DNA of 64,000 bases from Patescibacteria group bacterium. GTDB lineage: Bacteria > Patescibacteriota > Minisyncoccia > Phycocordibacterales > Phycocordibacteraceae. A model generated the notes under the pieces. It ran no database searches. It was given only the letters and a program-made list of their open reading frames with translations, and was not told where the DNA came from. The stretch spans positions 152,934 through 216,933 of the forward strand of contig JBBTSZ010000002.1 in assembly GCA_038064495.1 (NCBI GenBank), in the 5' to 3' direction. Every line of letters starts with the position of its first letter. Within the stretch, counting starts at the first letter, position 1. Below are positions 41,471-58,997 of the stretch, one piece after another. Position numbers and translations under genes: made by a program.

Positions 41471-41555
41471 GGAGGCGTCGCATAGCGGTCTAGTGCGCAC
41501 GCTTGGAAAGCGTGTGTGGGGCAACCCACCGAGAGTTCGAATCTCTCCGCCTCCG
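41471..41555 (+). tRNA. tRNA-Ser (anticodon GGA), class II with long variable arm
   Basis: Acceptor GGAGGCG/CGCCTCC, anticodon loop TTGGAAA, T-arm GAGAG-TTCGAAT-CTCTC, discriminator G; CCA not encoded. Confidence 0.85.
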
Positions 41556-41569
41556 CAAAATGAGAAAAT

Positions 41570-41592
41570 GACGCGCAAGCGTCTTTTTCTTT
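41570..41592 (+). terminator. short hairpin GACGC-GCAA-GCGTC + TTTTTCTTT after tRNA-Ser
   Basis: 5-bp GC stem with T-tract. Confidence 0.5.
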
Positions 41593-41606
41593 AATTTTGC
41601 GAGAGA

Positions 41607-41654
41607 AGCGGAGAGATTCGAACGCCGGAGCGGGTACCAGCTCAGCAGAGCTGG
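41607..41654 (-). repeat. inverted partial copy of the tRNA-Ser T-loop/acceptor block (GCGGAGAGATTCGAAC) followed by an 8-bp hairpin ACCAGCTC-AGCA-GAGCTGGT
   Basis: 16/16 nt identical to the reverse complement of tRNA-Ser 41535-41550; does not fold as a tRNA. Confidence 0.6.
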
Positions 41655-41707
41655 TCGCGAGGCGGTGGCTAGACCAAAGATGAGCGACGGCGAATCTTTG
41701 AGTTGAA

Positions 41708-41741
41708 GCCGAAAGCGTACTCGCGTTCTCTCCGCCTCCGC
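41708..41741 (+). repeat. 20-nt motif CCGAAAGCGTACTCGCGTTC + direct repeat of the tRNA-Ser 3' end (TCTCTCCGCCTCCGCA)
   Basis: 16-nt direct repeat of 41542-41557; the same 20-nt motif abuts the tRNA-Val 3'-end repeat at 58782-58801. Confidence 0.65.
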
Positions 41742-41766
41742 ACTCAAATGCAGTATCATATACCGC

Positions 41767-42246
41767 ATGAAGCAGCAGATTCTAAAGAGCGTACTCTTAC
41801 TACTCGTGTGTCTGTCCGTACTCGGTATCCTCATCCTGATAGGGAATAGCGTGCTGTCCTATAGAGGTGGCGTAAAGGACATTGCGTCGGTTATTGATGG
41901 ATTTCAGTACGAAATAGCTAAAACCGATAGTGAAAAAGAACGAGGTCTCAGTGGTCGTCCCTATATACAAGATAACTACGGCATGCTGTTTGTATTTGAT
42001 ACCCCGGGCAACTACGGATTCTGGATGAAGGACATGCTGGTTTCTATAGATATTATTTGGTTATCGGACAACGGAACGATTCTTGGCATCAATCCATCCG
42101 TTACTCCGGCTACGTATCCGAACGTCTTTTACCCGCCGTCACCCGTTCGGTATGTGCTTGAGACACGAACGGACTATGCGCACGACGCCGGATGGGTTGT
42201 TGGCTCTCGCGTCACATTACCTCCGCAGTACGCGCGAACACCGTAA
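41767..42246 (+). CDS. DUF192-domain protein (secreted/anchored)
   Basis: YGMLFVFDTPGNYGFWMKDMLVSIDIIWL fits the DUF192/COG1430 core. Confidence 0.7.
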   Translation: MKQQILKSVLLLLVCLSVLGILILIGNSVLSYRGGVKDIASVIDGFQYEIAKTDSEKERGLSGRPYIQDNYGMLFVFDTPGNYGFWMKDMLVSIDIIWLSDNGTILGINPSVTPATYPNVFYPPSPVRYVLETRTDYAHDAGWVVGSRVTLPPQYARTP

Positions 42247-42279: not shown

Positions 42280-42710
42280 CCGGACTGGCCCAGACGATCG
42301 CTCGGGTGAAAACCCGGGAGGAAAGTCCGAACACAGGCAGATTTCACAATTTGCAGAAAGGTAGCGGGTAACGCCCGTCCGCCGTAAGGCGCGAGGTGCG
42401 AACAGTGACGGTTCAGGGCGAAAGACCTGAACCGTCTGATCTAGCCGAAAGGACAGGTCAGACGAGCTCCTATGGTGACATAGGAGGTGAAACGGCTAAA
42501 TCCTTACCCCTGTGCAAGGCCGTGCCACCACACCAACTTCTTTGTTAGTTATTTGCTTACTAGACATACAGTAAGTTGATTTCTAGTGAGAAAGTTGGTG
42601 TGGTGGAGAGCCGCTCGAGGCCATCGGTAACGATGGTCCCAGATAGATGGTCGTCCGCCTCAAAAGCTCGCTTTTGAGGCGACAGAATTCGGCTTATCGG
42701 ACCAGTCCAA
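42280..42710 (+). ncRNA. rnpB: RNase P RNA (bacterial type A) with a ~80-nt AT-rich extended helix insertion
   Basis: P4 GGAAAGTCCG; GGTAACGCC; AGGTGAAACGG; 3' GACAGAATTCGGCTTATCGG; P1 GGACTGG/CCAGTCC; inserted perfect 17-bp stem CCACCACACCAACTTCT...AGAAGTTGGTGTGGTGG (42527-42603). Confidence 0.85.
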
Positions 42711-42717
42711 TTACATG

Positions 42718-49957: not shown

Positions 49958-50032
49958 GTCCTCGTAGTTCAATGGATAGAACAAGGGTTTCCTAAACCCT
50001 AGATCCACGTTCGACTCGTGGCGAGGACACCA
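49958..50032 (+). tRNA. tRNA-Arg (anticodon CCT), CCA encoded
   Basis: Acceptor GTCCTCG/CGAGGAC, anticodon stem AGGGT/ACCCT with loop TTCCTAA, T-loop TTCGACT. Confidence 0.85.
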
Positions 50033-51508: not shown

Positions 51509-51583
51509 GCTTGGATAGCTCAGTTGGTAGAGCATTCCCCTGAAGAGGGAAGGGTCGGCGGTTCGAGCCCGCCTCCAAGCACC
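51509..51583 (+). tRNA. tRNA-Phe (anticodon GAA)
   Basis: GCTTGGATAGCTCAGTTGGTAGAGC..., anticodon loop CTGAAGA, T-loop GGTTCGAGCCC, acceptor TCCAAGC, then A-CC. Confidence 0.85.
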
Positions 51584-58769: not shown

Positions 58770-58801
58770 CTGCGCGGTGAGGGAACGCGAGTACGCTTTC
58801 G
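58770..58801 (-). repeat. 20-nt motif CCGAAAGCGTACTCGCGTTC + direct repeat of the tRNA-Val 3' end (TCCCTCACCGCGCA), read on the minus strand
   Basis: Plus strand TGCGCGGTGAGGGA (58770-58783) is identical to 58925-58938; motif at 58782-58801; same arrangement as 41708-41741. Confidence 0.65.
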
Positions 58802-58857
58802 GTCCCTACAGGACCTGTACACGTTGCGGATTTTGCTTCGCAACATGCTCGCAACAT

Positions 58858-58924
58858 CTTCGAATCCCTCACGCTCGTCTCCCAGACGAGCTACCGCGCA
58901 CAAAATCCCCTTACGGGTATTTTG
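58858..58924. repeat. inverted partial copy of the tRNA-Val T-loop/acceptor block, split by an 8-bp hairpin GCTCGTCT-ccc-AGACGAGC, forming an 18-bp stem with the tRNA 3' trailer
   Basis: Plus strand TTCGAATCCCTCAC[insert 58872-58891]ACCGCGCACAAAATCCCC-ttac-GGGTATTTTGTGCGCGGT. Confidence 0.6.
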
Positions 58925-58997
58925 TGCGCGGTGAGGGATTCGAACCCCCGACATCGTCAACGTCAATGACGCGCTCTACCAACTGAGCTAACCGCGC
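58925..58997 (-). tRNA. tRNA-Val (anticodon GAC)
   Basis: Minus strand GCGCGGT-TA-GCTCAGTTGGTAGAGC-G-CGTCA-TTGACGT-TGACG-ATGTC-GGGGGTTCGAATCCCTC-ACCGCGC-A. Confidence 0.85.

Follow-up and report, generated by a model that had tools for sequence, protein, structure and literature searches.

RtT (rttR, RF00391), the 178-nt repeat unit of the tyrT-tyrV tRNA operon, is reportedly freed when transcripts of tyrT and other tRNA operons are processed, and it has been linked to the stringent response (PMC4986893); it is missing from some strains (PMC3318445), and its function is unresolved (bioRxiv 10.1101/2024.07.17.603846). In Escherichia coli K-12, the last 19 nt of tRNA-Tyr (AATCCTTCCCCCACCACCA, beginning within the T loop) recur downstream of tyrV at a spacing of 178 nt, and RF00391 scores 133 to 137 bits on the K-12 units. 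The RtT consensus has a branched interior, closed by a stem, GGGGAAGGAU/AUCCUUCCCC, in which an inverted copy of the tRNA end pairs with a direct one. The 3' ends of tRNA and tmRNA genes are also classic integrase targets, and crossover within them is known to occur at the T-loop sublocation. Here, we describe an element that recalls both systems, found behind tRNA-Ser(GGA) and tRNA-Val(GAC) in a 64,000-nt stretch of a Patescibacteria group bacterium (GenBank assembly GCA_038064495.1, contig JBBTSZ010000002.1, positions 152,934 to 216,933 of the forward strand; hereafter the window). It belongs to a family of the Candidate Phyla Radiation (CPR, or Patescibacteria) for which we establish the structure, the strand, the link to tRNA genes, presence/absence polymorphism, and tandem arrays. 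The family shares the architecture and dynamics of RtT with no detectable homology and is not a member of RF00391.

At the first locus, tRNA-Ser(GGA) occupies window positions 41471 to 41556 on the + strand (ARAGORN; Rfam tRNA, 55.6 bits), and CCA is not encoded. Its last 16 nt plus A (41542 to 41557) form the first copy of a repeat, termed A. This 16-nt tRNA-Ser 3' end, TCTCTCCGCCTCCGCA, has exactly two matches in the window, where shuffled sequence is expected to give 0.04 even at ≤2 mismatches. The second match, termed C (41727 to 41742, + strand), is a perfect direct copy downstream of the tRNA at a spacing of 185 nt, delimited by the repeat search and by comparison with empty sites. Between A and C, on the same strand, a hairpin with a T tract comes first (T1, GACGC-GCAA-GCGTC; 41570 to 41593), recognized by terminator scoring and in folds. 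The hairpin proper (41570 to 41583) scores as a terminator on either strand and is the tip of a long A:B palindrome. B (41597 to 41623), TTTTGCGAGAGAAGCGGAGAGATTCGAAC, is an imperfect inverted copy of the 3' part of tRNA-Ser together with its trailer, evident from its sequence and from its pairing with A in the minimum free energy (MFE) fold; within it, the inverted copy GCGGAGAGATTCGAAC, the reverse complement of GTTCGAATCTCTCCGC, lies at 41608 to 41623.

The remainder of the insert is a structured core of two arms. The P4/P3 arm (41624 to 41663, +) is supported by a covariance model of the family (R1, 63 bits), by family covariation, and by a compensatory change in a relative (L156). Its P4 pairs GCC with GGC and is followed by a GGAG/AG internal loop, and P3 is the hairpin ACCAGCTC-AGCA-GAGCTGGT at 41636 to 41655. 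The P1/P2 arm (41664 to 41710, +), GGCT...AGCC around CAAAGAT-GAGCGACGGCGA-ATCTTTG, is recovered by folds, the covariance model, and covariation. A small 20-nt hairpin, H1 (41709 to 41728, +; GAA-A-GCG-UACU-CGC-G-UUC), links it to C and is optional in the family, as judged from a 19-mer match, from variants, and from members without it. The earlier note on this DNA, made from the letters alone, had reported the direct repeat of the tRNA end at 41726 to 41741, the inverted copy at 41607 to 41622, the perfect hairpin at 41635 to 41654, and a terminator hairpin; all of them are real, with most of the coordinates off by one. Its hairpins, each of which exists, were described as isolated, whereas the defining part of the element is the conserved two-arm core. 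The Ser element is not an assembly artefact, since two independent Hainich groundwater assemblies hold the identical sequence at this locus.

The 19-mer CCGAAAGCGTACTCGCGTT of H1 occurs at exactly two sites in the window, 41709 to 41727 (+) and 58784 to 58802 (-), where the shuffle expectation is 0.07 at ≤3 mismatches, and both sites adjoin a copy of the neighboring tRNA's 3' end. The second site belongs to an element behind tRNA-Val(GAC) (58924 to 58997, - strand; ARAGORN, Rfam, and repeat search), whose 3' end is its copy A. On the - strand there follow T1, AAAATACCCGTAAGGGGATTTT (58902 to 58923; sequence and folds), and B (58859 to 58902; sequence and folds), an inverted copy of the 3' part of tRNA-Val. 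This B is in two pieces (58859 to 58872 and 58894 to 58902) with a hairpin, Hx (58873 to 58891), dividing it at the T-stem/acceptor junction. The core (58803 to 58858; R1, 30.8 bits, E = 4.8e-05, and fold) is reduced to a GTTGCG...CGCAAC hairpin plus a short P1-like hairpin, GGTCC-TGTAG-GGACC. It is followed by an H1 (58784 to 58802) whose 19-mer exactly matches that of the Ser locus and by C (58770 to 58783; repeat search), a direct copy of the tRNA-Val 3' end at 13/14 bases. That the 20-mer is common to the two loci and stands beside a 3'-end copy at the Val locus had been seen correctly; the inverted copy at the Val locus, like the RtT precedent, was absent from the earlier note. The insert measures 170 to 185 nt and has no open reading frame (ORF) of its own.

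The window has six tRNA genes, and the covariance model finds the element behind only these two. When the genes at 49958 to 50032, 51509 to 51583, 41471 to 41556, and 58924 to 58997 are compared for encoded CCA, tRNA-Arg(CCT) has it and tRNA-Phe ends in ACC, possibly with full CCA, and both are element-free; tRNA-Ser(GGA) and tRNA-Val(GAC) lack encoded CCA and carry the element. This is not a rule, as CCA-encoding tRNAs elsewhere (e.g., in L038 and L044) bear the element.

A scan of one genome per species with the 18-mer ACGCGAGTACGCTTTCGG gave 30 loci, 22 of them in CPR (Saccharibacteria, Paceibacterota, Minisyncoccia, and others). At the CPR loci the 18-mer is preceded by the reverse-complemented 3' end of the neighboring tRNA (Trp, Glu, Lys, Arg, Ser, or Cys) or tmRNA and followed by about 90 conserved nucleotides. 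The remaining 8 matches are non-CPR and are without element context; by a back-of-envelope estimate, an 18-mer should match this collection about 17 times by chance. In the metagenome collection, a gapped pattern made from three blocks of the core found at least 120 loci, and model R1, built from 15 copies, recovers copies without the 18-mer too, for a total of 179 copies on about 140 fetched CPR/Patescibacteria contigs. Among tRNA and tmRNA genes with enough downstream sequence on the sampled contigs, 117/190 have an element within 350 nt downstream, and the host genes comprise 31 tRNA species plus tmRNA. Of the 117 tRNAs with an element, 68 are followed by an inverted match of ≥9 nt, compared with 8 of the 73 without one; the inverted copy B is thus tied to the element. 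Exact matches to the neighboring tRNA reach 31 nt, starting in the T loop and ending at ..GGAATCG; the outer boundary of the repeat is variable and the inner one is fixed. The recurrence of motif plus tRNA end beside many tRNAs in many genomes agrees with the earlier view that the locus is no random scar; the finding is genuine, beyond ordinary background, and larger than was then held. A literature search for a prior description in CPR found none. Two orphan elements (L011 and L016) have no detectable tRNA and are followed by a common conserved sequence, GAGCCTTCTC[A/G]AGATAGAACC..., which matched nothing by ARAGORN or Rfam and may be a degenerate or unusual tRNA-like gene.

The breadth of host genes bears on the plainest interpretation of a tRNA-end repeat, namely an attL/attR footprint: an island or prophage, once larger and borne by an integrase, would have entered at the tRNA 3' end, lost its cargo, and decayed. 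A direct repeat running from the T loop to the tRNA end is what this predicts, and gene content behind tRNA-Ser(GGA) varies among relatives as it does at an integration hot spot. However, the same covarying core stands at 31 tRNA species plus tmRNA, and independent deletion remnants, which would not share a core, are therefore an unlikely source. The inverted third copy is, moreover, a regular part of the element, tandem arrays of the unit exist, and neither the ORFs of the loci nor the Pfam scan of the window holds remnants of an integrase. Large phage and plasmid collections, too, lack intact islands or phages with this core beside an integrase gene in the attP region, which speaks against such an origin. 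We consider this origin very unlikely.

The adjacency of core and tRNA match also invites comparison with guide RNAs, such as the TnpB reRNA, other OMEGA RNAs (IscB included), or the tRNA-homing CRISPR RNA of type V-K transposons, in which a scaffold would carry a tRNA-matching guide of about 16 to 20 nt and lead a protein encoded elsewhere to tRNA genes. Here, too, a structured core is directly followed by a match of 16 to 31 nt on the tRNA strand, and the T-loop TTCGA just 5' of the matched sequence would occupy the position of a target-adjacent motif. Yet no effector gene lies near any copy, the putative guide has no fixed length, and it decays and does not track changes of the tRNA (L031). 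The target would be an essential single-copy gene of the element's own genome, and systems of this kind make no use of an inverted copy such as B. We consider this interpretation very unlikely, the least probable of those weighed here.

Across the family, the unit reads in constant order on the tRNA strand: the tRNA (with A counted from C56), T1, B, GAAUC-GAAA, P4/P3, GG, P1/P2, the optional H1, and C. B is an inverted copy of A plus A's trailer and is often interrupted by Hx at the acceptor/T-stem junction. The core, about 80 to 120 nt long, is a three-way junction, GAAUC-GAAA-[P4/P3 arm]-GG-[P1/P2 arm]-GAUUC. P4 pairs G-N-C with G-N'-C, with N and N' covarying, and is followed by a purine-rich GGA/GA internal loop, while the P1/P2 arm has the consensus GGUCGC.../...GUGACC. 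C copies the tRNA directly from T-loop C56 to the discriminator plus 0 to 12 trailer bases or more. The Hx sequence AGCCAA-CUGC-UUGGCU is kept behind Arg-GCG, Arg-CCG, and Gly-UCC (L034, L044, and L045), and this conservation behind different tRNAs indicates that Hx belongs to the element and is not a random spacer.

H1, on the tRNA strand GAAA-GCG-UACU-CGC-G-UUUC, is set inside the T-loop-derived part. Among 142 copies found with the core pattern, 16 have its exact form and 88 lack the insert, reading ..GGAAUCGG... The forms of the stem are compensatory (GCG/CGC, GUG..CAC, CAUG..CAUG, and CCGCGG..CCGC), and in the model alignment one of its pairs is GC in 15 and AU in 4 copies and another is CG in 6, UA in 6, and AU in 4. 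The 20-mer is thus no hallmark of the element; it is an optional hairpin that marks a subfamily, and most members lack it.

Covariation supports the core throughout. In 118 distinct copies, paired cells amount to 93.5%, as opposed to 66.5% in shuffles, double-sided changes are seen in 26 of 27 pairs, and the covariation score is 0.541 versus 0.136 for shuffles (0 of 500 reach it) and 0.04 to 0.09 for slid partners, figures that are somewhat inflated, the alignment having been fitted to the model. The structure belongs to the tRNA-sense strand. At P1 position 5, an A.C mismatch on the opposite strand in 121 of 132 copies corresponds to a G.U pair on the tRNA strand, and at P1 position 7 the tRNA strand has G-C in 63, G.U in 45, and A-U in 9 copies. 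The mean MFE of the core is -38.6 kcal/mol on the tRNA strand versus -29.9 on the opposite strand (lower in 126/132 copies), and composition-controlled z-scores are -4.6 versus -2.8 (lower in 57/60). The other covarying pairs give no strand separation (A.C 35 versus G.U 26). An antisense reading was dropped, as the G.U/A.C pattern, MFE values, and z-scores favor the tRNA strand; it would have placed on the opposite strand a small RNA whose 5' end complements the tRNA, together with -10-like boxes and a shared terminator. Between an RNA and a non-autonomous mobile element, the two choices raised at the outset, the structural evidence favors a single-stranded, tRNA-sense molecule.

This conserved core is also where a purely mechanistic origin meets difficulty. 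Replication template switching between the T arm and terminator hairpins could leave a functionless direct-inverted-direct triplication, and the order of the three copies, the junctions at the terminator tip and T loop, and an outer repeat boundary that varies while the inner is fixed are all as such an event would produce. It leaves unexplained, however, a conserved covarying core of 80 to 120 nt at every inner junction, an Hx common to elements at different tRNAs, and the strand-specific G.U pattern, and as a full account of the element we judge it highly improbable.

The dynamics of the element were followed in relatives that were fetched via HtpX homologs named Parcubacteria/Paceibacterota and that keep the GroEL-LemA-HtpX-tRNA-Ser(GGA) neighborhood. 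At 79 to 85% HtpX identity, presence and absence are clean. The empty sites that the earlier note proposed to look for exist: L153, L155, and L157 have tRNA-Ser(GGA) with neither the element nor a second copy of the 3' end. L156 holds the orthologous element, in whose P3 a C-G pair has become U-A, a compensatory change; a terminator directly follows its C. The base 3' of ...CCGCA is C both in empty sites and after copy C, whereas copy A continues with AAAAT; in the window, the flank beyond the Ser copy C (CTCAAATG...) likewise opens with C, as after GCA in the relatives' empty sites. The indel is therefore exactly one repeat-bounded unit. The interval between tRNA-Ser(GGA) and the DUF192 gene contains different genes in L153, L155, L156, L157, and the window (UDG plus deacetylase, a metal hydrolase, a 660-aa protein, or nothing), and the 3' flank of this tRNA is a rearrangement hot spot. 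The orthologous element of L156 (3507 to 3715) is itself chimeric, its first half matching the window's Ser element and its second (GTGAGAGATTCGAAG...GGTCCTGTAAGGACC) resembling the Val element, which suggests recombination between elements at T-loop-like sequences.

Units are also amplified in place. Two identical 158-nt units stand in tandem behind tRNA-Pro in L128 and three behind tmRNA in L126, and further arrays are present in L052 and L005. Tandem duplicates aside, copies on one contig are about 62 to 65% identical, approximately as diverged as copies on different contigs, and the clustering signal is weak, with 66% identity by tRNA type and 65% by contig versus 61%. In one pair of contigs (L034 and L125), no DNA can be aligned except the tRNA-plus-element block (240 nt, 89% identical), and its A and C copies are altered in concert, trailer bases included. 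The tRNA bodies of this pair (L034:1989-2061 and L125:3086-3158) are near-identical, one reading as Arg(GCG) and the other as Arg(TCT), with orthologous elements, an apparent anticodon shift within one tRNA lineage as far as the sequences tell. The pair had been considered as the best example of an element at different tRNAs and was dropped, the tRNA body being the same with an altered anticodon.

Clean presence and absence at tRNA genes would also be expected of a miniature non-autonomous integrative element of about 150 to 190 nt that moves as a folded single strand or RNA circle. Folded into a closed three-armed junction, such an element would insert between U55 and C56, either through a recombinase of the host or, following DNA uptake, through homologous recombination. 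The long arm of its circle (S plus the reverse complement of S, with T1 as tip, S being the tRNA-end sequence) would mimic the 3' duplex of the tRNA gene, and insertion would bring a replacement 3' end with terminator (A plus T1) and displace the original end (C). The order A-T1-B-core-C fits a Campbell-type insertion of a circle with one S copy and an inverted partner, and site-loop-inverted site-cargo-site is the order expected of folded single-strand integration, as in the hairpin attP of CTX phage and integron attC. Beyond C, the flank opens with GCAC, as do the trailers at empty sites, whereas the trailer after A (GCAAAAT) is specific to the element, and B complements A including A's trailer and not C's flank. 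Perfect palindromes or repeats of 25 to 45 bp at some loci suggest recent templated events, and a strand-specific structure suits a single-stranded substrate. The likeness to integrative elements at tRNA sites thus extends to the repeat from T loop to gene end, the tRNA and tmRNA targets, a gene rebuilt by the element-borne copy, and empty sites in relatives.

Unlike those elements, however, this one has a structured cargo of about 100 nt, flanks for dozens of tRNAs, and old, diverged copies, and neither the ORFs of the loci nor the Pfam scan of the window tie it to an integrase, transposase, or reverse transcriptase. An integrase, or a phage whose attP bears the motif, as proposed in the earlier note, was sought in viral contigs, in ORF clusters of the loci, and in the window ORFs scanned, and none was found; nor did the 18-mer or the gapped core pattern find a copy of the element in viral contigs. 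Copies within a genome are as diverged as those between genomes, tandem duplicates aside, with no sign of recent bursts, and the core, in place, has changed about as little as the tRNA (L034/L125). The tRNA-specific segments interleave with conserved modules, in the order acceptor complement, conserved Hx, T-stem complement, conserved core, and C, so that each move would have to rewrite three segments, and precise loss via the direct repeats accounts for empty sites without any insertion activity. Overall, we view an integrative element as possible, if on the unlikely side. Its boldest form, a gene-less and viroid-sized mobile element, of DNA or derived from RNA, that would parasitize the tRNA genes of ultra-small bacteria by means of a single-stranded circle, T-loop insertion, and host recombination, seems to us a little more doubtful again.

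The comparison with RtT offers a different account. Both RtT and the CPR element are trailers or spacers of tRNA operons on the tRNA strand, and in both the unit ends in a copy of the tRNA 3' end that starts within the T loop, has an upstream inverted copy able to pair with that 3' copy, adopts a branched structure, forms tandem arrays, and varies in presence among strains. E. coli SK1144 (L158) has two adjacent tRNA-Tyr genes with no annotated rttR or tpr and a fatty acid desaturase gene next; its difference from K-12 (L159) indicates that the RtT array is polymorphic in E. coli too. The CPR element differs from RtT in having its own conserved three-way junction and sequence blocks, in standing behind 31 tRNA species plus tmRNA with flanks matching each, in an inverted copy that is often much longer (to about 45 bp, with trailer and terminator tip), and in lacking a tpr-like ORF. 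The reading that we favor, and to which we give an even chance, makes the element a trailer RNA module of the RtT kind, with its tRNA-end repeats as the means of gain, loss, and amplification. The unit would be transcribed with the tRNA gene or by read-through; many loci have no T tract between tRNA and core (e.g., L128, L034, and L036). The transcript would fold into the three-way junction closed by tRNA-derived stems. Since the unit ends in a tRNA 3' end, tRNA-maturing nucleases might then release it as a discrete structured RNA, much as reported for RtT. The direct repeats A and C would permit tandem duplication and precise deletion of the unit, in part already seen, which would lead to clean empty sites and a patchy distribution.

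Several observations weigh against a trailer RNA. We infer transcription, processing, and any function of the element RNA from sequence. RF00391 (gathering threshold, 45 bits) has no match in the window at E ≤ 10 or at 8 CPR loci at E ≤ 1. The window loci show no sigma-70-like promoter, and a terminator-like hairpin stands between tRNA-Ser and its element; with T1 as terminator and no promoter, expression at the Ser locus would need read-through. The inverted copy can indeed pair with the T-arm/acceptor strand of the tRNA, as had been suggested: the whole-transcript MFE fold at both window loci pairs B with the genuine tRNA 3' end (A), and in these folds the 5' strands of the tRNA pair with the distant C, making the element a three-armed insertion between U55 and C56. 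Such A:B pairing, if formed, would harm the tRNA; cotranscriptional folding together with termination at T1 would probably prevent this misfold. B also pairs with C in folds of the Ser and Val loci, yet the outer parts of B and C, when searched, showed no compensatory B:C changes. At positions that distinguish A from C, B sides with A (29:0 inside the tRNA), and one copy C (L031) retains an older T stem that no longer fits its tRNA. Given this lack of B:C coevolution, the long closing stem seems not to be selected as an RNA helix. G.T wobbles, finally, could also be selected in a single-stranded DNA intermediate. We read these patterns as A, B, and C being made together by a templated DNA event, after which B and C decay or are homogenized by unequal recombination, with copy A held by tRNA function and the core under purifying selection.

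The element also resembles mimics of the tRNA top half (the tmRNA domain, Y RNA/YrlA, and viral examples). B:C corresponds to the 12-bp acceptor-plus-T-stem helix of the neighbor, and Hx leaves this helix exactly where nucleotides 8 to 48 do in a real tRNA. Unlike in these mimics, the pairing often runs past the discriminator into the trailer, no free NCCA end is modeled, and the core interrupts the T loop.

Searches for a known identity returned little. Rfam at gathering and permissive thresholds gave only tRNA, tmRNA, RNase P, and chance microRNA-like hairpins, and ARAGORN and the Rfam tRNA-clan models (tRNA, tmRNA, and Y RNA) recognized genuine tRNAs only, leaving the element unmatched. ORF clustering at 24 and then about 130 loci revealed local synteny only and no linked protein, no cluster being common to more than 9 of the roughly 130 loci, and ten window ORFs scanned against Pfam contain no recombinase domain. 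A leader of the next gene was rejected, as that gene lies on the same strand in 55 cases and on the opposite strand in 56. A miniature inverted-repeat transposable element was rejected on the grounds that the repeats are target-derived, tRNA-specific, and of variable length (about 4 to 35 nt aligned), with copies on the same contig about 65% identical. Hammerhead, twister, pistol, hatchet, kink-turn, retron msr/msd, C/D box, and T-box were rejected on inspection by eye, and a long terminal repeat primer-binding site was rejected, as the copies continue into the genomic trailer and not the mature CCA end.

CPR/Patescibacteria genomes are about 1 Mb in size and have very little spare DNA, and about 60% of tRNA and tmRNA genes on the sampled contigs trail a structured module of 150 to 190 nt. 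Should the module prove to be an RNA, it would count with the more abundant of the radiation's structured RNA families that Rfam lacks; the unexplained RtT principle, in which a tRNA's own 3' end caps a structured RNA, would have arisen or persisted in a distant lineage, giving comparative leverage on the role of RtT-type RNAs. Should it instead be a gene-less element aimed at the T loop, it would represent a new class of minimal mobile DNA. In practical terms, the repeats can be mistaken for prophage att sites, break assemblies at tRNA genes, and yield spurious ORF calls.

The last two effects can be seen at the Ser locus. A contig from an independent assembly of the same population (L002) starts at window position 41600, inside the inverted copy B, and a contig break at this point indicates that the repeats fragment assemblies at tRNA genes. 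An ORF at 41490 to 41834 (-) crosses the Ser element, with similar ORFs in L003, L008, L012, L021, and L027. These element-crossing ORFs of about 80 to 110 codons cluster together only because the element DNA is conserved, and they are likely miscalled as genes. Farther along, the DUF192 gene is the next after the Ser element, and just downstream of it lies a bacterial class A RNase P RNA (42282 to 42712, +; 130 bits), which spans 431 nt compared with the 367 positions of the model and so carries insertions.

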